Assembly: GCA_049303675.1 (NCBI GenBank) | Contig: JBAQNJ010000001.1 | Coordinates: forward strand, 821,443-885,442 | Source of the DNA: Microgenomates group bacterium | GTDB lineage: Bacteria; Patescibacteriota; Microgenomatia; UBA12405 | DNA: 64,000 bases | Direction: 5' to 3' | In this document: positions 19,667-54,968 of the stretch, piece by piece | How the letters are laid out: every line of letters begins with the position of its first letter | Numbering within the stretch: position 1 is the stretch's first letter | Translations under genes and position numbers: made by a program | Notes under the pieces: generated by a model | Told to the model about the DNA's origin: nothing | The model's input: only the letters and a program-made list of their open reading frames with translations | Databases searched by the model: none

Positions 19667-19667
19667 C

Positions 19668-19811: not shown

Positions 19812-19833
19812 CATATTAATTACAAATTAAAAA

Positions 19834-19850: not shown

Positions 19851-19899
19851 TTAGGTGTTTTTTGTTGATTTGTAAATTATAATCAGTAATTAACAATTT

Positions 19900-19972: not shown

Positions 19973-19987
19973 CTAGGTAATTTCATT

Positions 19988-20069
19988 GCCGCAGTGGTGA
20001 AATTGGTATACACGTACGCTTTAGGAGCGTATACCGCAAGGTGTGGAGGTTCAAGTCCTCTCTGCGGCA
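19988..20069 (+). tRNA. tRNA-Leu (anticodon TAG)
   Basis: GCCGCAGTGGTGAAATTGGTATACACGTACGC-TTTAGGA-GCGTA + long variable arm + GGAGGTTCAAGTCCTCTCTGCGGCA; followed by T-run. Confidence 0.8.
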
Positions 20070-20090
20070 CTTTTTTTGCTACACTATTTT

Positions 20091-32737: not shown

Positions 32738-33079
32738 ATGCGCGTTAAAACTGGAATAGTCCGTCACCAACATCACAAAAAAGTCCTAGAGGCAGCCAAG
32801 GGTTTTTGGATGACTCGTCACAAGAGATACAAGGTAGCTCACCAAGCAGTCATGCATTCTGGCAATTACGCCTACGAAGGTCGACGTATTCGCCGTCGTG
32901 ATATGCGTCGATTGTGGATTGTCCGTCTCAACGCTGCTCTCAAGCCATTTGAAGTCCGCTACTCCACTTTCATTAATTTAATGAAAACCAAAAAAGTTGA
33001 TCTCAATCGTAAAATGCTCACCGAGATTGCTATCCAATATCCTGATACTTTCAAATCCATCGTCGCCTTTATAAAATAG
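32738..33079 (+). CDS. rplT: 50S ribosomal protein L20
   Basis: 'MRVKTGIVRHQHHKKVLEAAKGFW...RRDMRRLWIVRLNAA' L20 signature. Confidence 0.9.
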   Translation: MRVKTGIVRHQHHKKVLEAAKGFWMTRHKRYKVAHQAVMHSGNYAYEGRRIRRRDMRRLWIVRLNAALKPFEVRYSTFINLMKTKKVDLNRKMLTEIAIQYPDTFKSIVAFIK

Positions 33080-33104
33080 GGTACGGGGATTCACTTAAAT
33101 TTTT

Positions 33105-33139
33105 AAGCTCTCCGATAGCTATCGGAGAGCTTTTGTTTT
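33105..33139 (+). terminator. rho-independent terminator (perfect 12-bp-stem hairpin AAGCTCTCCGATAGCTATCGGAGAGCTT + TTTGTTTT) abutting the pheS-fragment ATG
   Basis: read directly; no SD sequence between the hairpin and the ATG at 33140. Confidence 0.65.
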
Positions 33140-33640
33140 ATGCAACTAGAAGAAATAAAAAAAGAAATAGAAAAATGTTCAACGGCAGCTGATTTGGAAA
33201 ATATTCGTATAAAATATCTAGGTAGAACTGGTCTAATTAATGCCGAATTTTCCAAAATAAAGTCTGCCCCAGACCATAAACTTTTTGGTATAGAGTTAAA
33301 TGAATTAAAAAAATCAGTTGAAGAATTAATCGAAACAAAAAATTCTTCCCTTGGTCACGAAATAAAATCAATCAAAAAAAATATATCAGTAGCTTCAATA
33401 AAAAAAATCGGACATTTACATCCTTTAACAATAACTGAGCGTCAACTCAACGAAGTTTTCCGCAAACTAGGCTTCTCCATCTACAATTCTCCTGAGATTG
33501 TCACTGATGAGTACAATTTTGAGCGCCTGAATGTCCCCAAAAATTACCCTGCCCGTGACATGAAAGAGATTGGACCCATTACAATTATCAAAGTTGAAAT
33601 AGCAGATAATATCTCGACAATATTTTACGAATTAAAATAA
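33140..33640 (+). pseudogene. pheS: phenylalanyl-tRNA synthetase alpha subunit, N-terminal 141 codons only (homology ends after 'NYPARDM' at ~33563; tail is unrelated)
   Basis: 'LENIRIKYLGRTGLIN' and 'GHLHPLTITERQLNEVFRKLGFSIYNSPEIVTDEYNFERLNVPKNYPARDM' align to PheS residues ~25-155; the catalytic core and pheT are absent from the window. Confidence 0.7.
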
Positions 33641-33701
33641 TTTACATAATATAAGTTATTGACCGATTTCATCATTGATAGAGTATAATTCCACCAGCTA
33701 A

Positions 33702-35183
33702 ATGGCAAAAGTTACTTTTACTATCTCAGGGTTATCGAAAAAATTCATATTCAAGACAATCGGCAAAGACATCTCAGCATTACAAAAAAAACTTTTTCGC
33801 TTGCAAATTGCCACCAAACTTCCTCCAGAATTTTTACCTCTCCATGCGTGTTTATTAAAAAAAAATAATATTGGTATTCTCTTGACCGGTCCGAGCCAAT
33901 CTGGCAAATCAACACTAGCTACTTTACTTAACCAAATAGGTTTTGAGCCTCTAGCAAATGATTTTGTTGCAGTTACCTCTGAAAAAAATAAATTGATGGC
34001 CAGTGATATTAATTACCAATCAAATAGTAACCACTACTTACCAACACCCATTGATTATATATTCGCTTTAAACTCAAAAGATGAACTTGATATCAGCAGA
34101 ATGTCCAAAAAGGTATTTAGACATTTTTATATAGAACAACTACAACCACTATCACACAAGTCAGTTTTGCCCTTAACAAAAAGACCACTGTTTAAACAAT
34201 TGTTTCTGAAACATATTAGCCTAGGAAACAGAAAAAACCCAGTGAAATGGCTCAAAAGCATAAAGTATATTATGTCTTTGTCAATACCAAAAAAAGTTGG
34301 AATTTTTGGGTTAGGTACAATTGGCCAAGATATATCAAGCCTACTTCTTACCCAATCAAATTTAAGTGAATTACATCTATTTACCCGCGATCAAATTAAA
34401 CTAGCTTCTTTCGTTTTAGATTTAAAAAGTGCCAACCAAAAACTAGTAATTATTGCTCATACAAAAGTCGAGGACTTTTTTAACAGTAGTGATATCGTAA
34501 TTCTGTGTTTTAGAGAAGACGTATCCGTAACCTCTAGTCCCCAAGTTGAAGAAAGAGTTAAGAAACTTCTTCCCCACTCAAAGATTATTTGGGATCTCAG
34601 TCGTGTTACTCGTAAGGTTGGATTTACGGGCAGTATTTTAATGGTTACTAACCCAGTCGACTTGCTCTCTTCGCTACTCTACAACTTTTCATGGTTAAAT
34701 GATCAGAACCAGTCAGATGACCAAGGGCTGTTTTCAAACCAAATACTTGGAGTGGGAATTGGCTTAGACTATAAACGTTTAAAGACCTTCAAGCAGACGG
34801 AGAAATTAGAATTAGTTGGTCCACACGGTAGCGATTTACAACTTGCTCAGGTCAAAAACGGAATATTAACAGAGGCAAATTCAAAATACCTAGCCGGCGT
34901 CATAAGTTATTCCGATAAAATTCGACTTGGTTGTGCCCGAACTAGGGTGGGTCCAGTATATGAAATAAACAAAATTCTCACTACACTCTTGATAGGGAAA
35001 GGAATCATCAGAGCCTCTGGTTTATACCACTCAGGCATATTTTTAGGTAATATCTGGAGAATCAAGAATCACATTCCCAGCACTAACTATATTTTGGATA
35101 AAAAATTACAAAAAAAACTGGATCAGATATCCGCTAAACAAAACGATTTGTTGCAAACAACTAAAATCGATTTGTTTAGGTAG
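33702..35183 (+). CDS. two-domain fusion protein: N-terminal HprK-like P-loop kinase domain plus C-terminal L-lactate/malate dehydrogenase-like domain
   Basis: N: 'IGILLTGPSQSGKSTLATLLNQIGFEPLANDFVAV' (HprK C-domain-like Walker A). C: 'KKVGIFGLGTIGQD' (GxGxxG), 'LMVTNPVDLL' (NPVD), 'ILGVGIGLDYKRL' (LDxxR), 'VGPHGSDL' (catalytic His). Confidence 0.6.
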   Translation: MAKVTFTISGLSKKFIFKTIGKDISALQKKLFRLQIATKLPPEFLPLHACLLKKNNIGILLTGPSQSGKSTLATLLNQIGFEPLANDFVAVTSEKNKLMASDINYQSNSNHYLPTPIDYIFALNSKDELDISRMSKKVFRHFYIEQLQPLSHKSVLPLTKRPLFKQLFLKHISLGNRKNPVKWLKSIKYIMSLSIPKKVGIFGLGTIGQDISSLLLTQSNLSELHLFTRDQIKLASFVLDLKSANQKLVIIAHTKVEDFFNSSDIVILCFREDVSVTSSPQVEERVKKLLPHSKIIWDLSRVTRKVGFTGSILMVTNPVDLLSSLLYNFSWLNDQNQSDDQGLFSNQILGVGIGLDYKRLKTFKQTEKLELVGPHGSDLQLAQVKNGILTEANSKYLAGVISYSDKIRLGCARTRVGPVYEINKILTTLLIGKGIIRASGLYHSGIFLGNIWRIKNHIPSTNYILDKKLQKKLDQISAKQNDLLQTTKIDLFR

Positions 35184-35250
35184 TTCTTCTGCTTGACACC
35201 TAAGTATCGAGTATGTATCATTACCAGCAAATAAGAAAATTACCAAGTTT

Positions 35251-36333
35251 ATGTCACATAATTGCCGAGAATATAAAATTAGACCAGCCGAACCAAGTGA
35301 TGCACCCGAACTAGTTGAACTAGTTAAAAATGGTATGCCAGGCTATCCATTTGAATCTGTATATCGTGAACAATCAGTCAAAGAATCCATTGAAAGTCCA
35401 ACCTCATATAGAGTAATTGCTGAAAGAAAGGGCAAAGTTGTCGGAACCGCAGTCCTAGGTGAAACTGGTGAGTACCAACAAGAAATCAAAAGGGTTGTAG
35501 TCTCACCAACTGAGCGAGGCAATGGTCTCGCTAGCACCATGACCAAACACCTAGCCGATAAGGCCACTGCAGCAGGTATCGTCCCATGGCTAGATGCTAG
35601 AACCAGAGAACCCGCCATGCAGCAAGCTGGTCTAAGCGCTGGTATGCATGCCATGTCTCTCGAAAAAGGCAAACATCTAGTTTATAACCATTTAGATAGT
35701 CAAGGACAAGAAGTTGGCCCAGCTCGGGAAACTATGGTAAACGAAACATTACTAACAAAAGACCCTCAAGAATTGACTGGTGGACTAAAAAGATGGGGTC
35801 ATAATTTATTAAAAACTCTAGCGGCAAACATGGAAGATTCATTTTCTCCTCCACCCAAAGATGTAAGTATTGTAAATAAAGAAATACCTAGTGCTAGAGA
35901 AGTTAAGGAAAAAATTGAGAGAGGGATTAGAAACCTGTCACCAAGCACCGTTCAAAGGACTTCAAACCCCGACATCGTTATCCTCTCAGAACACCAAACA
36001 TCTATGGTAGTAGTCACGCCGGATGCATCAGCATTTGTTTTGACCAAACCAAACGTCGGACTAAAGAAGATGGTCGAAACAGGTGAAAAAATTGGACTAC
36101 AAACCATCACCGCATATATTGATATTGGTGATATTAAATCACAACGACATTTACGAGACGCAGATATGTCTCCAACTATGGTTCGCTTAAATCAAAACAA
36201 AAGGTGTGAACCTATAACCTATCAAGTAGGTTGGAGAAAAACGGCCAATAGCTTTAACCAGTGTGTCGACGAAATCAAAGTTGCCCCTGAAGCAGAACGT
36301 CAAATTCGAGACATCATCAAAAGAATTCCGTAA
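35251..36333 (+). CDS. GNAT-family N-acetyltransferase domain protein with ~200-aa C-terminal extension of unknown function
   Basis: 'IRPAEPSDAPELVELVK...VVGTAVLGE...VVVSPTERGNGLASTMTKHLADKA' GNAT motifs A/B. Confidence 0.6.
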   Translation: MSHNCREYKIRPAEPSDAPELVELVKNGMPGYPFESVYREQSVKESIESPTSYRVIAERKGKVVGTAVLGETGEYQQEIKRVVVSPTERGNGLASTMTKHLADKATAAGIVPWLDARTREPAMQQAGLSAGMHAMSLEKGKHLVYNHLDSQGQEVGPARETMVNETLLTKDPQELTGGLKRWGHNLLKTLAANMEDSFSPPPKDVSIVNKEIPSAREVKEKIERGIRNLSPSTVQRTSNPDIVILSEHQTSMVVVTPDASAFVLTKPNVGLKKMVETGEKIGLQTITAYIDIGDIKSQRHLRDADMSPTMVRLNQNKRCEPITYQVGWRKTANSFNQCVDEIKVAPEAERQIRDIIKRIP

Positions 36334-36348
36334 GTATATAATTAGACA

Positions 36349-37425
36349 ATGAAAAACGAATTGTTGAAAATATTAACCAAGCTTGTCAGCTTCCAAACAA
36401 CCAACGACCAGCCAGAAAATATTACCAAATGCTTTGACTATATAGATAGCCAGTTATCTTTTTATCCCTTCGCCAAAAAAATATATATCCAAAATGGGGT
36501 AGAATCACGTGTCTGGAGTACAAAAAAATCCCTAAACACGGAATATATTCTAAATGCTCATATTGATGTAGTACCTGCAGATCAAAAACTTTTTAAGCTC
36601 CACCTTCAACAAGACAAACTAAATGGCAGGGGAGTGTCCGACATGAAATTCTCGATTGCCTCCTACATTTGTATTTTAAAAGATATCTATACTGCTACAA
36701 AGAAGCTACCGTCCATTGCCCTTATGTTGACTTCAGACGAAGAGCTTGGTGGCTATAACGGTGTCAACTACTTGGTTAATCAAATTGGATATAGTGCCTC
36801 TGTCGTTATGGTACCCGATGGTGGAGAGAATAACAAAATAGTTGAAAACGCCAAGGGTGTGTTGCATTTACAAATTAGTTCCACTGGTATTCCCGCCCAC
36901 GCTGCCAGACTTTGGGAAGGGGAATCTGCAATTGAAAAATTAGCTCAGGCTATTGTCAATTTACGAAAAATATATCCTTATCCGTCAAAATCTGTTTGGA
37001 AAAACACCCTAAATATAGGTAAAATACAAGGTGGCACTCAAACTAATCAAGTTCCGGATTCAGCTTTTATGTATCTCGACATCCGCTATCTCCCCACTAC
37101 CAACACTGATATTGTAGTAAAAAAAATAGCCAATGCCTGCCCCAATTGTCAAGTTAAAACAATTATTAATGGTGAGGCTTTTCATATAGACAAAAACAAT
37201 AAATATATTAGCAGGTGGGCCAAGTTAATTTCAAATGGCAAACAGGTTTATATTAATGAAAACATAGCTTCAGATGGTCGATACTTCTCTGCCAAAAACA
37301 TTCCGGTAATTGTTTCCAAACCAATTGGTGGACTAATTCACCACCATGATGAATGGACTAGCCTATCTTCCCTCATGGAATTTACTAACAATCTGAAAAA
37401 ATTTTTGACAAATGACACTGACTAG
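36349..37425 (+). CDS. M20-family metallopeptidase/deacylase (ArgE/DapE/CPG2-like)
   Basis: 'LNAHIDVVP', 'GRGVSDMKFSIA', 'LMLTSDEELGG' metal-binding motifs. Confidence 0.7.
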   Translation: MKNELLKILTKLVSFQTTNDQPENITKCFDYIDSQLSFYPFAKKIYIQNGVESRVWSTKKSLNTEYILNAHIDVVPADQKLFKLHLQQDKLNGRGVSDMKFSIASYICILKDIYTATKKLPSIALMLTSDEELGGYNGVNYLVNQIGYSASVVMVPDGGENNKIVENAKGVLHLQISSTGIPAHAARLWEGESAIEKLAQAIVNLRKIYPYPSKSVWKNTLNIGKIQGGTQTNQVPDSAFMYLDIRYLPTTNTDIVVKKIANACPNCQVKTIINGEAFHIDKNNKYISRWAKLISNGKQVYINENIASDGRYFSAKNIPVIVSKPIGGLIHHHDEWTSLSSLMEFTNNLKKFLTNDTD

Positions 37426-37744
37426 ACTAAAAGGAATTGGTATTGGCAACTCAAAAGGGAGTGGCCGAGTTTTAATCATTAGTTCACATCAGGATTTTGC
37501 CAAAGTCAAGGGTAATGAGGTCCTCGTGGTCCAAAATGCCACACCCGATTTCATTGTAATTCTCAAAAAAGTAAAATGTCTTATCACCGATCAAGGCGGA
37601 GCCACTTCTCATATCGCCATTGTTTGTCGTGAGTTGTCCATACATGCCATTATTGCCACCGGCCTAGCCACAGCCAAATTCCATAATAACGATGAAATTT
37701 ACTTTGATACAACAAAAGGAACTGTCACCAGATATGATCCATAA
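37412..37744 (+). CDS. stand-alone PEP-utilizing-enzyme mobile (phosphohistidine swivel) domain protein
   Basis: 'LITDQGGATSHIAIVCRELSIHAIIATG' matches the swivel His motif (compare 'GGQTSHAAIVSRELGVPCVVG' in ppsA of this window); 110 aa. Confidence 0.65.
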   Translation: MTLTRLKGIGIGNSKGSGRVLIISSHQDFAKVKGNEVLVVQNATPDFIVILKKVKCLITDQGGATSHIAIVCRELSIHAIIATGLATAKFHNNDEIYFDTTKGTVTRYDP

Positions 37745-38483
37745 ATCACTTCAACTACTCCATAAAACATTAATTAGTTATCCGTCAATCGTCACTAATT
37801 ACTTTGACAAGTGGGGGATCAGGCCAGAGAACTTGATCACCCGTCTTTCCGACACCAATTTTCATGGAGGCATTGAATCAAAGATTATTTCAATCCACAA
37901 CCTCCCCTCAAAAAAATATTCCACTACATTAGACATAGGTCCAGAAACGGGGATAGAAATATTTCTACTTTCAGAGATATCTGCCCATCTTCAAGTAGCC
38001 GACCCAGATGAAGACAATTTAATTCTATTAAAATCTATTACCGACAAGGCCCTTCCAATTTATTCAAAAAATATCAAATATATCCCCTGTGGACTAGATA
38101 ACAGCCATACCTATCTAGCAGAAAATTCATACTATACCCAACTAAAAAAAATACAAAAAAATTCAATTCCTACGTTTTACCATCTCACTTCCACCTCAGA
38201 ACTGGCCAATCTAGATTCAAAATTTGACCTAATCTATATCCACAAAATTATATCCACTATTAGTCGTTCACAAAAAACCCCAGCCAACTCAATATTTCAT
38301 AAATCACTTGACACGCTTTTTACTAAACTAAATAAAAAAGGCATTATTTCTTGGACTGAGCCAAAATTCTTCTGGGATCAACAAAAATTGACTATACCTG
38401 ATAAATATAAGACAAAAGTTATAGACTATCAACTCTCCAACACAGCTGACAATTATCGACAACTATTAATAACTCATGATTAA
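37734..38483 (+). CDS. hypothetical protein, possible class I SAM-methyltransferase-like
   Basis: start trimmed to Met15 to reduce overlap; 'TLDIGPETGIEIFLLSE' loosely resembles MTase motif I; weak. Confidence 0.3.
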   Translation: MIHKSLQLLHKTLISYPSIVTNYFDKWGIRPENLITRLSDTNFHGGIESKIISIHNLPSKKYSTTLDIGPETGIEIFLLSEISAHLQVADPDEDNLILLKSITDKALPIYSKNIKYIPCGLDNSHTYLAENSYYTQLKKIQKNSIPTFYHLTSTSELANLDSKFDLIYIHKIISTISRSQKTPANSIFHKSLDTLFTKLNKKGIISWTEPKFFWDQQKLTIPDKYKTKVIDYQLSNTADNYRQLLITHD

Positions 38484-39444
38484 CCCCCGCTTAAATCCCT
38501 GGAACATTTATGGAAATTTTTCCAATCCAGACCCATCCATTACCGCCAACGTATATGCCAATGGTCATGAATGGTACAACTCTTACATGCCACCTTTTTT
38601 TTTGCTAAAAGACAAGCAACAAATCGCCAACATCAGAAAGAAACTTGATAAAGAATATATACAATATATATCAACAATATTTTCACCAAAAAATAGACTA
38701 AAAACAATCAAATTGCAATATTACCGAATCAAAAAATTTTTTAGCTTATCGAAAAAATTGATTCCAGAATTTGAGAAAATCGACGATCTCCAAAAACTGA
38801 ATCAACTACTTTATAAGTCAATCAATCTGATGCAGACATACCTAAACCCACTAGAGGCCATTGTCACCGGTAAACGTTCTTTATACAACCCGATTCCTCA
38901 TATTTTTAAAAACCAACATACCCAAATTGAATCACTAAAAAAATCACCCTCCTTAGAAACAATTTTTATTCCCATGTCAATAATTTTCACACACCGAAAA
39001 ACATTTTCAATTGAATATAAAAAAGTATTCAAGTATCTTACCTCCACTTTATTTTGTACCTCCAGAGATCTTCAGTTTGCCTTTAAATATGTTGAGAAGA
39101 CCTATCACTATAGTCACTTTATGGAATTATTTGACGCCCAACATGTTGTCAAACAAAATTATCACAAAATATTACACCTATCAGAACTCACACCTACCCA
39201 AGAATTTGTACACCATCTTCAGACAATCAGTGGTATTTTAACATGGTCAAAATATATCCCGATATCATACAAACCACTCCACTTTCGCTATTTTTGTGAA
39301 ATAGAAACATATTCAATTCTCTTAAATACACCCGAGGTAAAAGCATCAGAATTTCTCAAAAAAGAACTGTCGATCAAATCAAACTCAGGCTCAGAAAAGT
39401 TTGCCAAAACTATTTTTGCATTTAAATATTTTAACCATTTCTAA
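38476..39444 (+). CDS. hypothetical protein (322 aa)
   Basis: ORF overlapping the upstream stop; no motif recognised. Confidence 0.35.
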   Translation: MINPRLNPWNIYGNFSNPDPSITANVYANGHEWYNSYMPPFFLLKDKQQIANIRKKLDKEYIQYISTIFSPKNRLKTIKLQYYRIKKFFSLSKKLIPEFEKIDDLQKLNQLLYKSINLMQTYLNPLEAIVTGKRSLYNPIPHIFKNQHTQIESLKKSPSLETIFIPMSIIFTHRKTFSIEYKKVFKYLTSTLFCTSRDLQFAFKYVEKTYHYSHFMELFDAQHVVKQNYHKILHLSELTPTQEFVHHLQTISGILTWSKYIPISYKPLHFRYFCEIETYSILLNTPEVKASEFLKKELSIKSNSGSEKFAKTIFAFKYFNHF

Positions 39445-39463
39445 TGTGATATCATCATGTCAA

Positions 39464-39536
39464 GCCGAAATAGCCAAGATGGTCACGGCACTGGTCTGAA
39501 AAACCTGGGATGTTGGTTCGAGTCCAACTTTCGGCA
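39464..39536 (+). tRNA. tRNA-Phe (anticodon GAA), copy 2 (73/73 identical to 13360..13432)
   Basis: GCCGAAATAGCCAAGATGGTCACGGCACTGGTCTGAAAAACCTGGGATGTTGGTTCGAGTCCAACTTTCGGCA. Confidence 0.65.
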
Positions 39537-39685
39537 CTAGATGTCTGTTCTTTGCGGTACACTCCTTTTTCTTATTTCTATCATCGTTGTCTCTATTTTT
39601 TTTTGATATTCTACCAGTTTATAACTCCCGTCTTTAATCCACGGTAGAAGATTATCTTTTTTTGTTTCATTTTTTGTAGTCATAC

Positions 39686-39712
39686 AACAAAAAACCTCCC
39701 TTTCGGGAGGTT
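39686..39712 (-). terminator. rho-independent terminator for the decarboxylase gene (CCTCCC-TTTC-GGGAGG + T-run on minus strand)
   Basis: read directly. Confidence 0.55.
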
Positions 39713-39834
39713 CCTAATTTAAATCTATAATGAGATTACAAGTTAGGCCCCCCTAAGGAAGGCATAAAAAAGAAGAATTGGACACCCTTCATTACTTGTA
39801 ACACTAATCAATTATATACTAGTAATTGCATCTG

Positions 39835-41415
39835 TCAACCCGTCCGCGCTTCGATGGCATCAAAAATTAGTTTTTCCAAATTATCCACAGCGTCGTCCAA
39901 TATACCGTCAGTTGTCCATGGATTCATAATACAGGCTCTCCATGTCCACAATTTTCTCTCCTTAGTATCTGTTTCATCAAGTAAATCAGTTTCGGAAAAA
40001 TAATAACCACCTGGATTCTGAAAATCATTATCTAAAACATGCCTTGTTTTTGTAATGAAGCAGTGAAATGCTTCACTGTGTCCGTCTAAGTTTAATTTAG
40101 CCAAAACATCATCCCTCAGGGTAAAACATAATAAATTTAGTTCTGGGTCATGAAATGGACGTAAATATGTTGACTCCTTCAGCCTTGCATGAAGATGATT
40201 TATTCTATCAAGTGCCATATCAAAACTAGTTTGGAGTCCTTCCCTTCCCAAAGTATCCATCATCGCTTTGACTACCAATATTCCTCCAGCCCCTCCCGAT
40301 CCTTCAATTCTTTTAGAGCCTAATCCAGCCGTCCCTTCAATTAAAGATTTTGCGATCCTAGGCCTATCTTTTTCAAATTCTTCGGATTTATCAGCCATAT
40401 TTATCCCAATATAATTAGCTTTCACCCCTTTGGCTAATCCTGCATGTTTCCTCGCATCTTTGAAGCAGACGGCCCCACTACTTCCATTATATGGACCATA
40501 CAAGTTTTTGTGGACATCAAATACAACCGCATCATATTCTGGCAAGCCATCAAATTTATCACCAACCCTAGATAGTCTATACGGTGCACCATAGGCAGCA
40601 TCTCCAATCGTAAAGATTTCATTTTCACAAGCAATTCTATTTATCTCAACCCCGTCATCAACCAGCCCAGTTTCCGTTTCTCCCATGATTCCGATAATCG
40701 CCATTACAGGAATTCCCTTTGATTCCGCCTCACGAATTTTGTTTCTAAGATCATCTAGCGACATCTTTAAACCACATGTTTTTAATGTTTGTATTTTTAT
40801 ATTGTGATTTGGTCCACCCAATAAATCCACTGCCTTCGGAATAGAGTAATGGGCCATATCAGTAGTTAGCACCCAAACTTCATCAGGAAATCTTGTTCCA
40901 GCTTGTTCATACTTGGCTTCCATTTCTTTTCGAGCAACTGCAAGAGCAGTGAAATTGGCCATAGTCCCACCAGAACAAAATGTACCACTAGCTTTTTCCT
41001 TATCATAACCAATAATATCTAAGATATGTCCCATCGATTGATGTTCCAAACGTGTTTCTACCATACTCACCTCAGGCGCTACTGTGTTTGAACCTAATTC
41101 TGTCGACAGCAAATTTGCTACCAGTGCCGGAATAGGTACCTCAGTCAACATATGGCCCAAATAATTACTTGTAAACCTCCTAGCTCCTGACATTTGAACA
41201 AAACTATCGTTCATACCAGCCATCAGCTCCAAATTATTTTCCGAACCTTCGGCCAACAACTCTTTCAATAGTTTCTCTGCCAGAAACTCTCTATCCTCCT
41301 GTTGATTAGCAAAAGCCGCCAAAACTCTGCTTACCTCAACCTCCGAGTGATCAGTAGAAGTTGGTCTTTCTTTTATTGCTTTTGTCATAAAAAAAAGCCC
41401 CGCATAGCGGGGCAA
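39835..41415 (-). CDS. PLP-dependent group II decarboxylase (glutamate/tyrosine/aspartate decarboxylase-like)
   Basis: 'FCSGGTMANFTALAVARK', PLP-Lys 'FDVHKNLYG'; 526 aa. Confidence 0.75.
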   Translation of the reverse strand: MPRYAGLFFMTKAIKERPTSTDHSEVEVSRVLAAFANQQEDREFLAEKLLKELLAEGSENNLELMAGMNDSFVQMSGARRFTSNYLGHMLTEVPIPALVANLLSTELGSNTVAPEVSMVETRLEHQSMGHILDIIGYDKEKASGTFCSGGTMANFTALAVARKEMEAKYEQAGTRFPDEVWVLTTDMAHYSIPKAVDLLGGPNHNIKIQTLKTCGLKMSLDDLRNKIREAESKGIPVMAIIGIMGETETGLVDDGVEINRIACENEIFTIGDAAYGAPYRLSRVGDKFDGLPEYDAVVFDVHKNLYGPYNGSSGAVCFKDARKHAGLAKGVKANYIGINMADKSEEFEKDRPRIAKSLIEGTAGLGSKRIEGSGGAGGILVVKAMMDTLGREGLQTSFDMALDRINHLHARLKESTYLRPFHDPELNLLCFTLRDDVLAKLNLDGHSEAFHCFITKTRHVLDNDFQNPGGYYFSETDLLDETDTKERKLWTWRACIMNPWTTDGILDDAVDNLEKLIFDAIEARTG

Positions 41416-41524
41416 AATTACCTAATAAATGTAAAGCAGAAAAAATTTATAAATAATTTTTCTATCATATTAGTCGCATTATATCACTAGCACAATGTTT
41501 GGAAATAACCAAATTCTTATAGGA

Positions 41525-41869
41525 TTATTTTGATCTCAATAAGTCGGTGAACATCACTTCTCCAAACTTTTTAGCACTGGGATCTCTACTTAGTCCGTCC
41601 TCGACCAAATCCAACATTGCTCCTGCCGCCAATGGTGCTCTGATTACTTCTGTTGTCCTATATAGTCTATTGTGCTCAACCGGCAACCGCTCAATGCCCA
41701 CACTTCTTAATGTCATTTGGGTGTCACTATTCATCTCTCCACCCCTAAATCCATTTGTGGCAATTACTATTTCCCAAGCCAGTTTACGCATGTCTAGATC
41801 AGCAGGATTAGACGTTTTTACTATTTGTACAAATTCTTTTTTTAGTTGATCCATTTCTATCATGGGCAT
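41525..41869 (-). CDS. hypothetical protein (114 aa)
   Basis: ORF only. Confidence 0.3.
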   Translation of the reverse strand: MPMIEMDQLKKEFVQIVKTSNPADLDMRKLAWEIVIATNGFRGGEMNSDTQMTLRSVGIERLPVEHNRLYRTTEVIRAPLAAGAMLDLVEDGLSRDPSAKKFGEVMFTDLLRSK

Positions 41870-42345
41870 ATTTTATCACGACAACACCTACTTTACATTT
41901 TCCCCGATTATTTGTATATTTGACCCAATGACCTCTTTACGTCTTATTTCTATTTATAAACTTATTCACCCGCTAGCCGGAGGAATATTGACGTAAACAG
42001 TCCCCAAGTCAATTTAGCCCCTCCGGCAACGGAGGGGCTTTTTGTATCTTTGTTAATTATTTAAACAAAAAAATATGTCATCACAAATAGACAAGTGGAT
42101 AGAGCAACGTCGGTTAGCTCAAGAATTATCCAAAAAACAACGTCAAAATCTGGCCGATGTTGCAAAAATAGTAACCAGCAACATCCATCTTTTCCAGCCC
42201 AGAAATGTTGAAACAAAAGTTGCTGTCACCAAGTCAGAGTCAACTTCCAAACCCTAGTTTCGTCTCTAGCACTCCAAACAAATGAGTGCTAACAACAATA
42301 TCTAAACAGATACTTCCTATTTTTAGATAATATTTCTATATCAAT

Positions 42346-44967
42346 CTAATTCGAACTAGGTAACACTGTTACAATCGGCAGGGGAGTAATTGTCGGAACA
42401 GGCGTATTTGTCGGTGTTGGGCTAGGTGCCCAATCCCAAGGTTTATTCACCCCAATCTTAATTTCCTTACTGTAACTCGCTCCATCAACATCGCTGACTA
42501 CCGCCTTGAGACTATAAGTGCCATCACTTAGACCAATATCACCCTCAAATGGTCTCTCGGTCCATGACTTTTTTTCGACATCATTTACCAGCAGTTTTAC
42601 TTGAGTTATTTTTTTGAGGGAATTGGTACTTATTTTGACATTAAAAGTCCCTCCCACCGTCGATCTGTCACTCGGGCTATCAAAACTAGCCGAAACAGTG
42701 CCATCGTTGCGACAATAATCGCTTGGCGGGCTGTACATATCTTTATTTGGCTGCTGGGCAATCCAGCCATCTATTCCCTGTTGCCATCGATTGACCCCAT
42801 CTTTAGAAATAGGATCATCTTCTTTGAGCCTAATATATTCTTTCTCATCAAAATTGTTGTTGGCTACATCTTCAGGTGGTGCAATACCTCCGCCAGCTGG
42901 CGGATTACCTTTACAGACTTTTAATTTCAAATGGATTGGATCATTTATATTAGGTTGGGTTCCATCGATAAAATACATCGAAGTTGCAGGAAATCCATCA
43001 TGAGCTGCATATCCGGAAATTTTATCCACTTCAACTTGAACAATCGACGATGGGATAGGGAAATCTTGCTTTGGTCGTGTGGGCAATGTAGCTAGCATGA
43101 TCCTTTTCCAGATCGGACTGGCACCAGACACACCCGAAGCCACTTTGAGCATTGGGGTATTGTTATTATTCCCCACCCAAACTGTCGCTAATAAATTTGG
43201 CGTCCAGCCAATTGTCCAATTATCTTTTTTGTCATTAGTAGTTCCCGTTTTTACTGCCACTTGATAACCAGATACCTGCAATCCGTTGACGGCCCCAAAG
43301 GTAAGTATCCGATTATTGTTATCAGACAAGATATTGGAAATAATAAATGCTTCCTGAGGACTCATCACTTTTTTTCCTTCGACTTGTTTGAATTCTTCCA
43401 AAATACGTCCATCACGACCAACTACTTTGAGTATCCCCACTGGCTCGACCTTTAGCCCACCATTGGCAAAAGCTCCATAGGCCGAGGCCAAATCAATCAT
43501 CTTTACTTCCGCACCTCCCAAAGTGACTGCCAAGCCATATTTTTTCAGATTTTCCGTTGTTGGTTCGAGCGTCGTCATTCCCATGTCGTAGGCTTGCCTC
43601 AACATATTGGACAGTCCGACGTTAGCCAACGTTTTCACTGCTACCGTATTTATTGAATTACCTAGAGCTTGGGCCAAGCTCATCGGACCATTAAACTTAC
43701 CATTATAATTTTGCGGGCTATAATCTTTTTGTCCCACCACTGTCGAAGCAAAAGTCACCGGAGTGTCCATTACCATCGAGGCCGCCGAATAGCCTTTCCT
43801 AATAGCAGTCAAATATGTCACTGGTTTAATCGCCGACCCTGGCTGTCTCAAACCCTGAGTGACTACATTAAATTTGCCGTCTGTTTTGTCGCTAAAATAT
43901 CCCCGCGAACCCACCATTGCCAAGACTTGACCGTTAGTTGGATCCAACACCACTGCCGCACCATTACTAATTCCCAGTTTTTCGGCCTTGTCAATTTCTT
44001 CCGCTACAATTGTTTGCACCTGATTTTGAATTTTTAGATCCAGTGTAGTGGTTACTTTCAGACCACTACCATCGACCACATCTGCCCCATAAGTTCTGGT
44101 CAATAAATCTTTGATCCAAAAGACAAAGTGCTGGGCTTGTATTTGGGTTTTATTATCATGAAACTTGTAACTTTTTACTTCCTCCATTGTCTTCTTTTCT
44201 GTCTCGGCATCAATATAACCATCCTCTTTCATTCTCGCCAAAACATGGCCCGTTCTATCAATATAAAGGGTTGGGGTTGCCGAAAAAGGGGAGTAAGCAT
44301 TTGGACGTTGGGGTAACCCCGCCAATATGGCCGATTCTGTTAGATTCAAGTCTTTGACCTCTTTATTAAAATACTGTTTGGCGGCCGGTCCCACTCCCCA
44401 GTCAGCGCCACCATATGGTGCCTCGTTCAGATACATTAATAATATTTCACTTTTCTTATACTTTGCCTCGATCTGGACAGCCAATATAAATTCCTTGACC
44501 TTTCGGGTAACACTCACATCAGAATTAAGGAGTACATTTTTGACTAATTGTTGAGTTAGAGTTGACCCGCCAGTTAACTTATGAAAATAAAACACATTTT
44601 TGACAATCCGCAGTGGTGCCAGTGGATCAAACCCCTGATGTTTGTAAAAATCTTTGTCCTCAACTGCCACTGTCGCGTTTTTGAGTGCGTCGGGGACATC
44701 CTCCCAGACTACTGGCACCCGTTTAGCATCCTTGTAAACATCGTAGATCAGCTCTCCATTACGATCATATATCTGGGTGGAAAAACCATCACGCCGAACC
44801 ACCTTGTTGGGGGTCGGTAAATCCTTGGAGTACCATACAAAAGAAATTAAAATGAGGGCATAACCGACCAAAAATATCCCCAACAATACGGCAAAAAACC
44901 TGTACCAAAACCATTTTTCTCCCCAACCAATTTTTTTTAGCCAAAAAGCTACTTTACGATTTCTCAT
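42346..44967 (-). CDS. class A penicillin-binding protein (glycosyltransferase GT51 plus transpeptidase) with C-terminal Ig-like, Pro/Thr-rich extension
   Basis: 'GGSTLTQQLVKN' (GT51), 'SGSAIKP' (SxxK), N-terminal TM anchor; 873 aa. Confidence 0.9.
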   Translation of the reverse strand: MRNRKVAFWLKKIGWGEKWFWYRFFAVLLGIFLVGYALILISFVWYSKDLPTPNKVVRRDGFSTQIYDRNGELIYDVYKDAKRVPVVWEDVPDALKNATVAVEDKDFYKHQGFDPLAPLRIVKNVFYFHKLTGGSTLTQQLVKNVLLNSDVSVTRKVKEFILAVQIEAKYKKSEILLMYLNEAPYGGADWGVGPAAKQYFNKEVKDLNLTESAILAGLPQRPNAYSPFSATPTLYIDRTGHVLARMKEDGYIDAETEKKTMEEVKSYKFHDNKTQIQAQHFVFWIKDLLTRTYGADVVDGSGLKVTTTLDLKIQNQVQTIVAEEIDKAEKLGISNGAAVVLDPTNGQVLAMVGSRGYFSDKTDGKFNVVTQGLRQPGSAIKPVTYLTAIRKGYSAASMVMDTPVTFASTVVGQKDYSPQNYNGKFNGPMSLAQALGNSINTVAVKTLANVGLSNMLRQAYDMGMTTLEPTTENLKKYGLAVTLGGAEVKMIDLASAYGAFANGGLKVEPVGILKVVGRDGRILEEFKQVEGKKVMSPQEAFIISNILSDNNNRILTFGAVNGLQVSGYQVAVKTGTTNDKKDNWTIGWTPNLLATVWVGNNNNTPMLKVASGVSGASPIWKRIMLATLPTRPKQDFPIPSSIVQVEVDKISGYAAHDGFPATSMYFIDGTQPNINDPIHLKLKVCKGNPPAGGGIAPPEDVANNNFDEKEYIRLKEDDPISKDGVNRWQQGIDGWIAQQPNKDMYSPPSDYCRNDGTVSASFDSPSDRSTVGGTFNVKISTNSLKKITQVKLLVNDVEKKSWTERPFEGDIGLSDGTYSLKAVVSDVDGASYSKEIKIGVNKPWDWAPSPTPTNTPVPTITPLPIVTVLPSSN

Positions 44968-45106: not shown

Positions 45107-47023
45107 ATGACTGATATTAATAGTCTTGTTGGAATTGGCCCCAAAACTGCTACTGCCTTTCGCCAGATCGGCATCGATCTGGTTGAAAATTTGCTTGACT
45201 ATTATCCTTATCGCTATCTCGATTTTTCCCACACCTTAAAAATTGCCGATTATGATCAAATTTCTCCAGCTACTTATAGTGGTATTGTTCTCAATTTCCA
45301 AAACGTATATACCCGCAGTCACAAAAATATTCAAAAAGCCACTATCAAGGATAGTACCGGCACTCTTGATTTAATTTGGTTTAACTCTCCCTATCTTGCC
45401 AAAATTATTAAAGTTGACGAAATAGTCAATGTCGCTGGTATTGTTAGTCTATACAAACACAGGCCAACTATTATTGCCCCAATGTTGGGTCAAAAAACTG
45501 GCAGAATTATCCCTCTTTACCATCAAGCCCCTGGACTAAGGTCATCCCAGATTGAAAAAATTTTTCACCAGAATCACTCTCAAATTTTCAAAAACATCAC
45601 TGACCCCCTACCTTTATCAATTATTACAAAATATCGGCTGGGTAACTTACTGGATACTTTGACCGAAATTCATTTTCCAACTAGTCAAAAAAACATTTCC
45701 ACTGCTCAGTTGCGTCTTTCTCTGGACCAAGCCCTCCAACTATTGGCTACCTCCAATATTCAAAAAAATATTCTTAATCAAAAAAGAGTTGCCAAAAAAA
45801 TGTCCAAAGTTACACCAATTAATTTTCTACCCTACGAACTGAGCCAATCACAAAAATTATCATGGCAAGAAATCCAAAACGATCTCCTGTTATCCGTTCC
45901 TTGTCATCGGTTGATTTCTGGCGATGTCGGTAGTGGTAAAACCATTATTGCCCTATTGGCCGCCCATATGGCCAGTATCAACCACCAGATCTCCTTGATT
46001 ATTGCTCCCACCCAAGTATTGGCCAAACAGCATTTTGAATTTTTCTCCAATATTCTCCCCCATACTCCCATTATATTTCTCGATAAAAAAACAAAAAAAA
46101 TACCTAGAAACGCCATTATTATCTCCACTCACACCGCCTTTTATAAAGATACAAAGTTCATCAAACAAATCTCGTTGTTAATTATCGACGAGCAACACAA
46201 ATTTGGGGTTAACCAGAGAAACTTTTTGAGTTCCCTTCCCCACCCACCCCACACCATTTCCCTGACAGCTACCCCCATTCCCCGTACTCTAGCCCTATCG
46301 ATTTACGGCCACCTCGATATTTCTTATTTGGACCATTTAGACCGCTGGCACCCAGTCAAAACATTTGTGGTCCCTCCTCCAAAACAAAATAGTTGTTACC
46401 AGTGGCTTGACCAACATATTCAAAAAACCCATCAACAAGCATTTATTGTCTGTCCCTTTATCGAAGACTCCGACACCCTTACCACCGTTAAATCAGTCAC
46501 CAGCGAGTTTGGAAACTTAAAATTATTATTGCCCCACCTTAAACTAGGGCTTATTCATTCCCAGATTAAGTTAGCCCAGCGCCAAAAAATATTTAATGAC
46601 TTTGCCTCAAATAAAATTAATATATTGGTTACTACCCCTATAATCGAAGTGGGCATCGATTATCCCAATGCCGGTGTAATTATAATTCAATCAGCCGATC
46701 GTTTTGGATTGGCCTCACTTCACCAATTGCGAGGACGAGTTGGTAGAGGAGTCGAATTAGGCTATTGTTATTTATTTTCACCAAGGGACAATAGTCGATT
46801 AACTTATCTCGCCAGCCATTACGAGGGCCGACAATTGGCCGAGTTTGATCTCCAGACCCGCGGTCAAGGTAAATTATTTTCTACCATTCAGCACGGACAT
46901 TTCCCCCTCAATACCCAATCGATCGAATTGGCCACCAAAATAATCAAGGATTTAATCAAAGAAAAGTTTGATTTAAATAAATTAACCTCCAACGGTGAAA
47001 AAATAACCAGTTTAAGTAATTAG
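45107..47023 (+). CDS. recG: ATP-dependent DNA helicase RecG
   Basis: N-terminal 'LVGIGPKTATAFRQIGIDLVENLLDYYPYRYLDF', Walker A 'GDVGSGKT', 'DEQHKFGV', helicase C-domain. Confidence 0.85.
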   Translation: MTDINSLVGIGPKTATAFRQIGIDLVENLLDYYPYRYLDFSHTLKIADYDQISPATYSGIVLNFQNVYTRSHKNIQKATIKDSTGTLDLIWFNSPYLAKIIKVDEIVNVAGIVSLYKHRPTIIAPMLGQKTGRIIPLYHQAPGLRSSQIEKIFHQNHSQIFKNITDPLPLSIITKYRLGNLLDTLTEIHFPTSQKNISTAQLRLSLDQALQLLATSNIQKNILNQKRVAKKMSKVTPINFLPYELSQSQKLSWQEIQNDLLLSVPCHRLISGDVGSGKTIIALLAAHMASINHQISLIIAPTQVLAKQHFEFFSNILPHTPIIFLDKKTKKIPRNAIIISTHTAFYKDTKFIKQISLLIIDEQHKFGVNQRNFLSSLPHPPHTISLTATPIPRTLALSIYGHLDISYLDHLDRWHPVKTFVVPPPKQNSCYQWLDQHIQKTHQQAFIVCPFIEDSDTLTTVKSVTSEFGNLKLLLPHLKLGLIHSQIKLAQRQKIFNDFASNKINILVTTPIIEVGIDYPNAGVIIIQSADRFGLASLHQLRGRVGRGVELGYCYLFSPRDNSRLTYLASHYEGRQLAEFDLQTRGQGKLFSTIQHGHFPLNTQSIELATKIIKDLIKEKFDLNKLTSNGEKITSLSN

Positions 47024-52097: not shown

Positions 52098-54968
52098 TTA
52101 ATTTTGTCTCCATCCTGATAAAACTTTTAGAAAACTACCAGGTAAATTAAACCATAAATCCGGTCGATAATTTATCACCACTGACGGTGCTGAATTGTTA
52201 TCAAGCGGATCAGTAAAGTCCCGAGAGAAGGCAATGTTGCCATAAGTACTCGATGAATATAGTGACCCACTGATAGTCAGAGCAGTAGCTGCTGCTCCAC
52301 TGGTACTAATTCCACCATCTGCCACAAAAATCCCCGCCGATTGAGTCACTAAATCTGAAAAATTAATTGTCCCCTTAGAAATAATTATTAATGAATTTCC
52401 CAAATTTACAGTGTTATTTACATCTATATCCAAATCACCATTCACAAAGACAACTCCCGTTCCACCCACCGCCAAAACATTGGACATAGTAGAATTAGCC
52501 GGCATAGTTACTCCGTACCCGTAGCTCAAAAAATATTTATCATAAAAATATTGATAACTATATTTGTCCAAAGAGGACAATGTATCCAATTCTTTGTACC
52601 AATTATTAGGACTGCCATAATCACAACCAGTTTGGCCGAGGGCACATCCACCATTGGTAATAGAATTCGCGGTAATTAATCCATTATTGGTAATCGACAT
52701 TGCTGGAACACAACTCGGACTATAAACACAAGTCGAAGGTATAGCATTTGAGAGATTTCCCCGTACCTCAATTCCACCACCAACTACCTGATACCAGCGA
52801 CTCTGGGCCCCTGTCGAAGCAAAATCAACTAGTAGTACCGCCGAACTTGATGTATAAGGATCAATCACACTCTCTGTCAATGCTAGTTGAGGGCCACAAC
52901 TGGTTGTCCCCACCCCCAAATCTATCCAGCGTACGCTAGCTACACTCCCAGTAATATCTGCATTTGGAGAAGCGGTATATGTCTTGCCCCATATAACATT
53001 ATCCGAACCATAGGCAGAATCAGTTGTAGCATCAATTCGAACTGCCGTCCCCACCGTCGGGGTAAAATCAGCATAATTAAAATTCATATTGGAACCAGCC
53101 GGAGTATTATAACCAGCCCCCGAGGGACACTGAGCTCCCAGTGCCGAATCGGCAGCATCATACATATTTCCCAATACAGAGACATTACAACTCCACACCT
53201 TCCAAGTATATGGCGAGGCCACCCAACCAGTGTCTGACGTGGTATCAGTTAATCTTGTTTCAATAACATAGAGGTTGTTATCACCAACGCCAGTATAATC
53301 CACCACAGCACTCGCCCCCACCGACACTGCCGCCGAAGTAGTCCCAATTACCAAATTGGTAATTGTCCCATTCCAACGCATTTGGGCCGTTTTGATATCA
53401 TTACTGCCATCGGCATCACTCAGAGTAAAATAAAAAGTGACTAGGCGAGGGGAGGCATCATTGGCAAAACCACTTTTACAAATTTGATTTTTGTTACCTG
53501 TATCCATCGCCACCACTGTCCCCACACTATTTTTATAGACCATTGAATCAACTACTGGACCTTGATTCAGGCTAAAAGCCCAAACAGTCGACCATATAAT
53601 GTTGCCATTGCCGTTATTGGCCCCCACTTTCCAATACCATATCCCCGAAGCCAGTGCCGACACTACATGATTTATATCGGTTGTCCCTGTCACATAGACC
53701 CCATCGCTAGCTACATCACAAGGGTCTAGCGAATTTCTACCATAACATAGGTCATATTTTTGTTGAAGTGGACAGGCTCCCCACTGGACACCACTCAGAG
53801 CATTCCATTGGAGATTAATCGATGTCACCACTTGATTGTTGGTCGGAGACGCCAGTGTCGGGGCTATCGGATCAGTGCCAGTCATGGTGCCATAACACGA
53901 TACCCCCGGACAGTTACTGTTGCATGTCTGGGTACCGCAAGTATTGGCCACACAGGGCGAGCTAGCCACCGAGCAATCAGGGGTACAGCCACTACCCGAT
54001 GTTGGTACTGGTGTTCCAGCCCCACTCCCTGGACACGACCCACAGCTTGGACCACCACAATTATCACAATTACCTACCCCCCCACAAGCAATGCTCGGAT
54101 CAAACCCAGGACAATACGCACTCGGCGCACTCTCGCAAGTCAATGGATGACAAACAGCAGACGTTGGTGCAGCTCCATCAACCGGACAAACAATTGTATT
54201 ATTTAGCCTCAATACTTCGTTGCAATAGTTTCCACCGTCAACACAATTAATACTACTGTAACATTTTACATGGGCAGTGCCATCATTGGCACCACCCGCT
54301 TGATTGCATGTCTGATCACAATAACTCGACCCATGATTACAGACATTACCAGCATCTATTTTTTCACACGAACAAGTCCCATTTGGTGCTCTCGCAATTC
54401 CCGTGGCACAAGTCACACCACCACAGGCTGCTTGTCCCCACTCTCCACAAACAGGAGTCGGAGTCGCTGTAGGTGTTGGGGGAACCGGTGTCGCTGTCAG
54501 TGCCGCGTTGCCACAACAATGCCCATTACTACAATTCCCCGAACCAGATGGATATCCCTCAGAAGCGCAAGTCCCAATTGATGTCTTCAAACACCACGAT
54601 CCCGAGGCACAGACTGGTACCGGAGTACTCGTCGGTGGCTTGGGAGTCGAAGTTGCCTTTGGACAAGCACCCCAAGAACCAGAGCTACTACACGTTGCCC
54701 CACAAGCACTAGTCGACCCTGGGGTACAGCCACTCCAAGATGAAGCACATGACTTTGACCTCACACTACTCCCTGGACATGATCCAGCCGAGGCACCTCC
54801 ACAGGAAGCATAAGTTGACTTAGTAGCGCATGTACAATCGATCAATGAATTCCAACAGGTACATGATCCAGTATTGACACACCCAGCCAGCACATTTTTA
54901 GACGCTCCATGCCAGCAAAATATCCCGATTACAAAAGCAAATAATATCCAATATTTTTTAATTGGCAC
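52098..54968 (-). CDS. large secreted Cys/Gly/Thr/Pro-rich protein (956 aa) with Cys-rich N-terminal half and beta-helix-like C-terminal half; candidate pilus-associated adhesin
   Basis: signal peptide; dozens of Cys in CxxxC / CxC spacing; PT-rich linkers; the ORF is compositionally GC-richer and the opposite strand is littered with spurious ORFs. Confidence 0.6.
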   Translation of the reverse strand: MPIKKYWILFAFVIGIFCWHGASKNVLAGCVNTGSCTCWNSLIDCTCATKSTYASCGGASAGSCPGSSVRSKSCASSWSGCTPGSTSACGATCSSSGSWGACPKATSTPKPPTSTPVPVCASGSWCLKTSIGTCASEGYPSGSGNCSNGHCCGNAALTATPVPPTPTATPTPVCGEWGQAACGGVTCATGIARAPNGTCSCEKIDAGNVCNHGSSYCDQTCNQAGGANDGTAHVKCYSSINCVDGGNYCNEVLRLNNTIVCPVDGAAPTSAVCHPLTCESAPSAYCPGFDPSIACGGVGNCDNCGGPSCGSCPGSGAGTPVPTSGSGCTPDCSVASSPCVANTCGTQTCNSNCPGVSCYGTMTGTDPIAPTLASPTNNQVVTSINLQWNALSGVQWGACPLQQKYDLCYGRNSLDPCDVASDGVYVTGTTDINHVVSALASGIWYWKVGANNGNGNIIWSTVWAFSLNQGPVVDSMVYKNSVGTVVAMDTGNKNQICKSGFANDASPRLVTFYFTLSDADGSNDIKTAQMRWNGTITNLVIGTTSAAVSVGASAVVDYTGVGDNNLYVIETRLTDTTSDTGWVASPYTWKVWSCNVSVLGNMYDAADSALGAQCPSGAGYNTPAGSNMNFNYADFTPTVGTAVRIDATTDSAYGSDNVIWGKTYTASPNADITGSVASVRWIDLGVGTTSCGPQLALTESVIDPYTSSSAVLLVDFASTGAQSRWYQVVGGGIEVRGNLSNAIPSTCVYSPSCVPAMSITNNGLITANSITNGGCALGQTGCDYGSPNNWYKELDTLSSLDKYSYQYFYDKYFLSYGYGVTMPANSTMSNVLAVGGTGVVFVNGDLDIDVNNTVNLGNSLIIISKGTINFSDLVTQSAGIFVADGGISTSGAAATALTISGSLYSSSTYGNIAFSRDFTDPLDNNSAPSVVINYRPDLWFNLPGSFLKVLSGWRQN

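Follow-up and report, generated by a model that had tools for sequence, protein, structure and literature searches.

Within a 64,000-nucleotide stretch of genomic DNA from a Microgenomates group bacterium (the window, by which we mean the whole stretch at that length), we identify a four-gene module built around a free-standing swivel domain, the phosphohistidine domain of phosphoenolpyruvate (PEP)-utilizing enzymes. The core of the module comprises an M20 deacylase, the swivel protein, an S-adenosylmethionine (SAM)-methyltransferase-fold protein and an orphan all-α protein, and it has been seen so far almost only in bacteria of the candidate phyla radiation (CPR). The swivel domain is itself known; what is new is a free-standing copy locked to partners that are not those of a dikinase, one of them without a structural neighbour. 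We favour the view, at somewhat less than even confidence, that this 110-residue protein is a functional, diffusible phosphohistidine carrier of a module that tailors amino acids. In the window the four genes overlap in succession, by 14, 11 and 8 nucleotides:

36349..37425 (+), M20 metallopeptidase/deacylase of the ArgE/DapE type (PF01546, PF07687)
37412..37744 (+), swivel (phosphohistidine) protein, 110 residues, ATG start, PF00391 only
37734..38483 (+), divergent class I SAM-methyltransferase-fold protein, 249 residues
38476..39444 (+), orphan all-α protein with a short N-terminal β-hairpin and conserved motifs, 322 residues

The identity of the swivel protein is clear from profile comparisons. 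Residues 34–103 match positions 3–72 of the 72-position Pfam model PF00391 (E = 3.2e-18; 65.5 bits against a gathering cut-off of 23.1 bits), and the Pfam scan found no second domain in the reading frame. The protein contains the motif TDQGGATSHIAIVCRELSIHAII, and its loop T59-D-Q-G-G-A-T-S-H67 aligns with the catalytic histidine of PEP synthases, both the PpsA encoded elsewhere in the window and those in the PDB; His67 is on this alignment the putative phospho-acceptor. The best NCBIfam models are PEP synthases (NF005057, E = 5e-24; TIGR01418, E = 2e-23), with the C-terminal swivel of PRK08296-type proteins nearly as close (E = 1e-22; 80 bits, against 84 bits for PEP synthase) and enzyme I (EI), pyruvate kinase, PigC/RedH and rifampin phosphotransferase (RPH) models scoring lower. 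The top match in the PDB is likewise a PEP synthase (8a8e, E = 1e-16), whereas the RPH swivel matches weakly (E = 2.7e-5), and NCBI annotates the exact protein, from a 998-kb contig of a Microgenomates-group metagenome-assembled genome (MAG), as ‘PEP-utilizing enzyme’. The initial annotation of this stretch, made from the sequence without database searches, had described a reading frame made up of the swivel domain only, and this is borne out by 13 relatives from other assemblies, all of them stand-alone and 104–114 residues long. Across the 13 aligned family members, which share 45–67% identity, His67 and Thr65 are invariant, as is the loop T-x-x-G-G-x-T-[SC]-H; Cys56 and Cys72 are conserved in the family, at positions where PpsA has Gly and Ser. 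The alignment indicates a small family that is under purifying selection and has kept its catalytic loop.

The window also encodes, outside the module, a full-length PEP synthase:

2027..4297 (+), intact PEP synthase PpsA with PPDK_N, PEP-utilizers and PEP-utilizers_C domains

As had been noted at the outset, this enzyme is complete and carries its own swivel, which is 38% identical to the free one, the loops GGQTSH and GGATSH aligning. The presence of a related gene raises the question of whether the short reading frame is a decaying remnant of a bigger PEP-utilizing gene, or a chance reading frame. The low-GC cluster to which it belongs adjoins a truncated pheS gene, so the region has been rearranged, which speaks for a remnant. 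However, a tblastn search with PpsA over 33000..42400 recovered the swivel stretch alone (E = 8e-17) and nothing else below E = 0.3, leaving flanks without PpsA similarity in any frame and ruling out a pseudogene remnant of this kind; moreover, the PF00391 domain is full length with its catalytic loop present, 13 relatives share its length and conserved operon context, and its neighbours overlap the gene on both sides, by 14 nucleotides upstream and 11 downstream. We therefore give the remnant explanation practically no credence. A Rosetta-stone fusion of the swivel with one of its partners was also sought; there is none, all family members being of single-domain length.

All four core genes are present in each of the seven loci long enough to contain them (the window and L001, L007, L008, L009, L010 and L011; L numbers denote the other loci), usually with overlapping stop and start codons. 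Translational coupling of the four proteins is probable, given that their genes usually overlap. An M20 gene stands beside the swivel gene in every locus that reaches far enough; L012, cut at a contig end, shows the three core genes other than M20, and the contigs of L005 and L006 stop before the gene for the helical protein. The order of genes is as follows, the two proteins lacking a domain name, about 260 and about 340 residues long, being given by number:

L007: M20, swivel, 254, 340; upstream, a 503-residue HprK/LDH-like fusion and a weakly GNAT-like protein
L008: M20, swivel, 266, 359, then a second M20
L009: M20, swivel, 258, 358
L001 to L004: histidine ammonia-lyase (HAL), GNAT, 273, M20, 378, swivel, 268
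L011 (Candidatus Collierbacteria): M20, 358, swivel, 277
L010: swivel, 280, M20, 371
L012: (cut) 246, swivel, 261
L005 and L006: divergent M20, swivel, start of the ‘263’ family gene

Order is thus rearranged in L001, L011 and L010 with membership kept, and BLAST establishes orthology across loci at 32–51% identity for the methyltransferase-fold (‘263’) proteins and 24–38% for the helical (‘322’) proteins; a mirror-tree correlation of pairwise identities was weak and uninformative (r = 0.05–0.51). The module is also rare. A scan of one genome per species found it in 3 of 185,579 species; relatives of the swivel protein form only seven 90%-identity clusters among 5.8 billion proteins (108–114 residues, PF00391 alone), and clustering at 50% identity leaves 24 representatives of the 322-residue family in 1.84 billion proteins. 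The MAG labels of two loci, ‘uncultured Gammaproteobacteria’ for L010 and ‘Pseudomonadales’ for L012, are odd beside their CPR-like gene content. Two other readings of the cluster were considered and rejected: no viral contig in IMG/VR matched the profile of the 322-residue family, as one carrying a phage-borne module would, and no cluster protein had a PADLOC match that would indicate an anti-phage defence system.

Turning to the partners, the M20 protein has both the peptidase domain (PF01546, E = 1e-21) and the dimerisation domain (PF07687, E = 6.5e-18); its best NCBIfam model is TIGR01910, at 156.7 bits against a cut-off of 217.6, and all DapE/ArgE equivalogs fall below their cut-offs. The 249-residue protein, previously described as methyltransferase-like, does adopt a seven-stranded, Rossmann-like methyltransferase fold in its structure model, and its start is most likely 37734, as proposed then and as annotated by NCBI, rather than 37692. 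No methyltransferase model in Pfam reaches threshold against it, and the family conserves a variant motif I, LDIGPETGxE, together with an acidic residue after β-2 (ADPD); the motifs HGG, HK and SWxEP are invariant.

A distant family of methyltransferase-fold proteins of about 285 residues shares the N-terminal helices and the motif LDIGPE[TM]G with this protein, at 20–25% identity to it and up to 36% to other module members. Its genes (L017 9399..12063; L026 5504..6891; L032 867..2200; L021 2581..5810) adjoin XRE-type HTH_3 regulators in L017, L026 and L032, and in L017 also a REase-ARP/PD-(D/E)XK nuclease; several kilobases away lie an integrase (L021) and an N6 DNA methylase (L017). No swivel, M20 or 322-residue partner was found at these loci, and since these distant relatives occur without a swivel, the methyltransferase-fold family is broader than the module.

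The 322-residue protein yields a confident model of a helical bundle for which we found no structural neighbour in the PDB, and it apparently represents a new fold, as far as the model can tell. Its family shares the motifs PWNIY, EWYNSFMPPFF, PVEAxxTxK, TWSKYIP and SGSEK, and E32, E127, K133, K259, R271, E307 and K308 are invariant or nearly so. Resemblance of SGSEKxGK to a Walker A motif was considered and rejected, the Lys and the second Gly not being conserved and the position being C-terminal.

The initial annotation had proposed that the detached swivel is one piece of a split phosphotransfer relay, that is, a dikinase of the PEP synthase or RPH type rebuilt from separate polypeptides, in which the 322-residue, methyltransferase-like or kinase-like reading frame would supply the ATP-grasp and substrate domains. 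Several observations invite this reading. PEP synthase (84 bits) and PRK08296-type proteins (80 bits), the latter presumably subunits of two-component dikinases, match the swivel with nearly the same score; three of the genes are tightly linked; and split enzymes of this sort exist (PMC12167813). Both defining partners, an ATP-grasp and a substrate domain, were nevertheless sought and not found. Neither Pfam nor NCBIfam detects PPDK_N in any cluster protein, the PEP-utilizers_C TIM barrel is absent from both the swivel reading frame and the region, no ATP-grasp occurs among the four core genes in any locus, and the module offers the swivel no rifampin-binding-like substrate domain. The 322-residue protein in particular matches none of the PPDK_N, ATP-grasp and RPH profiles, so that a nucleotide-binding partner in the dikinase sense is lacking; an hhalign comparison of its family with PpsA gave a probability of 0.1%, and we found no similarity of fold to RPH. 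What survives of the earlier proposal is the partnership itself: the 249- and 322-residue proteins co-occur with the swivel, usually in overlapping genes, in 7/7 full loci, though neither bears an ATP-grasp, PPDK_N or RPH domain. Because both defining partners were tested for and not found, we do not regard the module as a split dikinase, an explanation that is now very improbable.

Characterized systems show how far the resemblance goes. HpeHI, CreHI and phenylphosphate synthase PpsAB each consist of two subunits, one an ATP-grasp and the other a swivel joined to a rifampin-binding-like domain (PMC12167813); RPH carries the same three domains in one chain (PMC4844700); and TalE, a PPDK-like enzyme that forms an N–P bond, N-phosphorylates the dipeptide made by the adjacent ATP-grasp ligase TalD (PMC6482885). 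These are precedents for swivel dikinases that are split and for ones that act on small molecules. As in the split enzymes, the swivel here is a PF00391 domain with a T/SxxGGxxxH loop; theirs carries phosphate between operon-encoded polypeptides towards small-molecule substrates. By contrast, our swivel is a separate 110-residue protein in a module without an ATP-grasp, and its partners are unlike the domains of RPH. PEP synthase and PPDK are the closest relatives in sequence, with the same Thr-Ser-His of GGxTSH, but their PPDK_N and PEP-utilizers_C domains are absent from the swivel protein and its operon. RPH and TalE transfer phosphate by a swivel to substrates resembling secondary metabolites, and the ligase beside TalE recalls a Lal-like ATP-grasp flanking the module in L010; unlike the module, they are single polypeptides with an ATP-grasp. 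The protein also recalls the stand-alone phosphocarriers of the phosphotransferase system (PTS), HPr and the EI-like domain of DhaM, small proteins or domains that solely carry a phosphoryl group on histidine. DhaM has a PF00391-type domain, and the swivel matches its model weakly (NF008478). Among the scanned cluster genes, however, we recognised no EI PEP-binding domain, HPr, EIIA or Dha kinase subunit, and the partners here are instead a methyltransferase fold, an orphan helical protein and an M20 peptidase.

To our knowledge, every characterised relative of the swivel uses the equivalent of His67 for phosphotransfer. Three points lead us to read the free swivel as a carrier: the invariance of its loop, the encoding of the protein together with its partners, usually in overlapping genes, and the transfer of phosphate through the histidine in these relatives. 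Phosphate carriage itself, together with its donor, acceptor and chemistry, is what we infer. In this scheme His67 would be phosphorylated at a donor site other than a module-encoded ATP-grasp, for which we see three candidates: the genome's own PpsA acting in trans, whose ATP-grasp and PEP-binding domains already dock a 38%-identical swivel; a locus-specific accessory kinase, namely the fusion with an HprK-like P-loop that the window shares with L007; or, lastly, the helical orphan. Once charged, the carrier would deliver its phosphoryl group to a small substrate, probably derived from an amino acid and bound by the helical protein, in which a set of Lys, Arg and Glu residues is conserved. 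The M20 deacylase, a variable GNAT and the methyltransferase-fold protein would work on this substrate too, through methylation and through the protection and deprotection of nitrogen by acyl groups. That the acceptor is probably a small amino-acid-derived molecule is suggested by the M20 deacylase, which is constant, and by the nature of the variable flanks.

Several points weigh against this proposal. ATP-grasp, PEP-binding TIM barrel and P-loop are all missing from the core, and no phosphoryl donor is recognised; the HprK-like kinase occurs in only two loci; and the lone nearby ATP-grasp, in L010, looks like an amino-acid ligase and not like PPDK_N. That PpsA might charge a foreign swivel is our own inference, and the role given to the helical protein is suggested by its conserved charged residues. 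A swivel domain can, in addition, be purely regulatory, as is the extra C-terminal domain of pyruvate kinase (10.1101/2024.08.15.607825).

This last point leads to the principal rival, that the swivel is a regulatory or scaffolding subunit exerting allosteric control over the M20, methyltransferase-fold or helical enzyme, possibly sensing PEP or energy status through its phosphorylation. The extra domain of Bacillota pyruvate kinase is a PF00391 homologue with a conserved histidine that confers autoinhibition and allosteric control, and like the present protein it functions without an ATP-grasp or PEP-utilizers_C TIM barrel (10.1101/2024.08.15.607825); pyruvate kinases also appear among the swivel's matches, and the core contains no recognisable catalytic domain for donor or acceptor. 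But the pyruvate kinase domain is fused and allosteric rather than free, the module contains no pyruvate kinase, and a pure scaffold would have no need of an invariant T-x-x-G-G-x-T-[SC]-H loop. We consider such a regulatory role unlikely, if still the main alternative to a phosphohistidine carrier.

Upstream of the core the window carries two accessory genes:

33702..35183 (+), fusion of an HPr-kinase-like P-loop domain and an LDH/MDH-like NAD-binding domain, 493 residues
35251..36333 (+), GNAT acyltransferase, 360 residues (Acetyltransf_1, E = 6e-10)

The fusion has an N-terminal P-loop, GPSQSGKST, and a C-terminal Ldh_1_N domain (E = 1.8e-9). Its match to Hpr_kinase_C reaches 24.3 bits against a cut-off of 33.3 with only about 55 residues aligned, and those to HprK_rel_A (25.6 against a cut-off of 200) and ScmC are weak. 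The initial annotation had placed this kinase-like protein next to the swivel as part of the relay; it lies two genes upstream, and is no constant partner, a single ortholog being found, at L007 (503 residues; 28% identity over 455 residues, E = 2e-32). A different function for it would be as a cognate kinase of the swivel, after the manner of HPr kinase with HPr or of PEP-synthase regulatory protein with PpsA, with Thr65, Ser66 or His67 as target. The P-loop and the weak kinase matches, the recurrence of the same fusion beside the module in L007 and the invariance of Thr65 speak for this. Yet the fusion was not seen at L001, L008, L009, L010, L011 or L012, where some contigs are short, its Hpr_kinase_C score lies under the Pfam cut-off, and Thr65 is conserved also in enzymes where it is no regulatory site, so that we think a dedicated swivel kinase decidedly unlikely.

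The GNAT protein has weak matches of the AblB and N-acetylglutamate-synthase type, its C-terminal ~240 residues being without a domain match. In L007 a protein in the same position is weakly GNAT-like (Acetyltransf_1, E = 0.023, below the cut-off) and BLAST finds no resemblance between it and the GNAT of the window; L009 contains a fragment similar to this L007 protein, and other, different GNATs occur in L001 and L011. Across loci the flanking enzymes include GNATs, hutH-type HAL that passes its equivalog cut-off, ADI/DDAH-type proteins and EamA exporters, with phosphatase-type genes in L011 (a HAD phosphatase) and L009 (a histidine-phosphatase-superfamily protein). The Lal-like ATP-grasp of L010 lies on the opposite strand, scores 25.7 bits against the PreAtp-grasp cut-off of 27.5 and is not PPDK_N. 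On the far side of the window's operon, and convergent to it, is a further enzyme:

39835..41415 (−), group II pyridoxal-phosphate-dependent decarboxylase, PanP/DABA-decarboxylase-like (PF00282, E = 4e-20)

It scores 154 bits against the 606-bit cut-off of TIGR03799 and was found at none of the other module loci, only in this genome; it is a possible accessory enzyme of the module.

Other neighbours are recorded here as side observations. L010 encodes, at 9830..10813 (+), a homologue of ‘methanogenesis marker protein 11’ (TIGR03280, 279 bits, above cut-off) with TiaS TCKD-like similarity. In the window (42346..44967, −) and in L008 (5991..9060, −) the module is followed closely by a class A penicillin-binding protein, after which L008 has a sortase, and cell-wall-type genes occur near the module elsewhere: a FemAB-like gene in L001, a Mur ligase in L005 and MurA/MurB in L012. 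A link between the module and the cell wall is possible.

In most loci the module has aminoacyl-tRNA synthetase genes as neighbours, at most a few genes away; taking L001, L011 and L012 together as one, these make four contexts that seem independent. In two loci a synthetase is accompanied by an enzyme acting on its own amino acid, histidyl-tRNA synthetase (HisRS) with HAL in L001 and arginyl-tRNA synthetase (ArgRS) with ADI and DDAH in L010. The synthetase surroundings are these:

Window: truncated pheS and duplicated tRNA-Phe
L001 2835..5796: HisRS with hutH-type HAL
L011 1642..5420: two genes past the hisS equivalog cut-off with an S66 (MccF-family) peptidase between them, GNAT and EamA exporter adjacent
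L012 1892..6308: class II synthetase without assignment, hutH-type HAL beside it
L005 919..5500: two class IIb synthetases (Asp/Lys/Asn type); beside M20 is one that looks by eye like LysRS
L010 4194..9793: ArgRS with ADI and DDAH

The probability of such adjacency by chance is about 0.01 by a rough binomial estimate, which ignores both the shared ancestry of loci and the tendency of synthetase genes to cluster in CPR bacteria, so that we treat the adjacency as no more than a lead. The arrangement in L011 may be the self-resistance pattern of a synthetase-directed antibiotic, or may just reflect how densely such genes are packed in CPR genomes.

In the window itself this context coincides with a region that has clearly been rearranged or acquired, bounded as follows:

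33140..33640 (+), truncated pheS, N-terminal ~143 residues of PheRS α with an unrelated tail of 23 residues before the stop; bounds the low-GC cluster on the left
39464..39537 (+), tRNA-Phe(GAA), predicted by ARAGORN; right edge of the operon

The pheS fragment sits in the canonical thrS-infC-rpmI-rplT-pheS position and covers only positions 10–66 of the 246-position tRNA-synt_2d model (TIGR00468, 57.6 bits against a cut-off of 237). No continuation of it lies beside the cluster in any frame, and a six-frame regular-expression search of the whole window gave no match resembling PheS motif 3; either the genome must have an intact pheS-pheT at another place, or the assembly has been rearranged at this point. 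The tRNA-Phe gene is identical in 74/74 nucleotides to another at 13359..13432 (−), 26 kb away, the two copies forming a perfect 78-nucleotide inverted repeat. This identity rules out a divergent, dedicated tRNA-Phe within the cluster, and the gene's place at the 3′ end of the operon could mark a site of integration or recombination; no integrase was noticed in the region, no scan aimed at integrases having been run. The G+C fraction of the cluster (33702..39444) is 0.365, three of its genes lying at 0.32–0.35, against 0.404 for the rest of the window; the core genes stand at 0.32–0.37 with the swivel at 0.41, housekeeping genes including thrS at 0.43 and the pheS fragment at 0.319. GC skew is negative throughout the window and weakest over 30–38 kb. 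Elsewhere in the window tRNA genes form dense clusters, nine at 11785..14642 (−) and four at 19593..20070 (+), whose tRNA-Leu genes give repeats of 86–91% identity, and a 955-residue reading frame at 52098..54968 (−), with RecG (45107..47023) as a neighbour, has no sequence relative in the PDB at E ≤ 1e-10.

All characterised swivel domains known to us are attached to, or act together with, an ATP-grasp or PEP-binding barrel. If its proposed function and the new chemistry of its partners are correct, the module would count as a multi-protein phosphotransfer system of a new type, extending the swivelling phosphohistidine mechanism to a diffusible carrier and new catalytic partners. In its fullest form, which we advance tentatively and regard as doubtful, the free swivel would be charged and discharged by partners of an entirely new kind, an orphan all-α fold providing the donor or acceptor site and a methyltransferase fold put to another use. 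The resulting compound would derive from an amino acid and be both phosphorylated and methylated; conceivably it is a synthetase inhibitor of the aminoacyl-phosphate or phosphoramidate type, accompanied by self-resistance genes. The idea of a synthetase inhibitor arises because the module repeatedly lies beside synthetase genes and because one locus, L011, combines a second hisS with an S66 peptidase, a GNAT and an exporter. The module gives two orphan protein families a testable context, and it points to specialised amino-acid-derived metabolism in CPR bacteria, organisms with very small genomes and few known secondary pathways. Should the link to synthetases hold up, the compound made by the module could be of a new class, directed at these enzymes.

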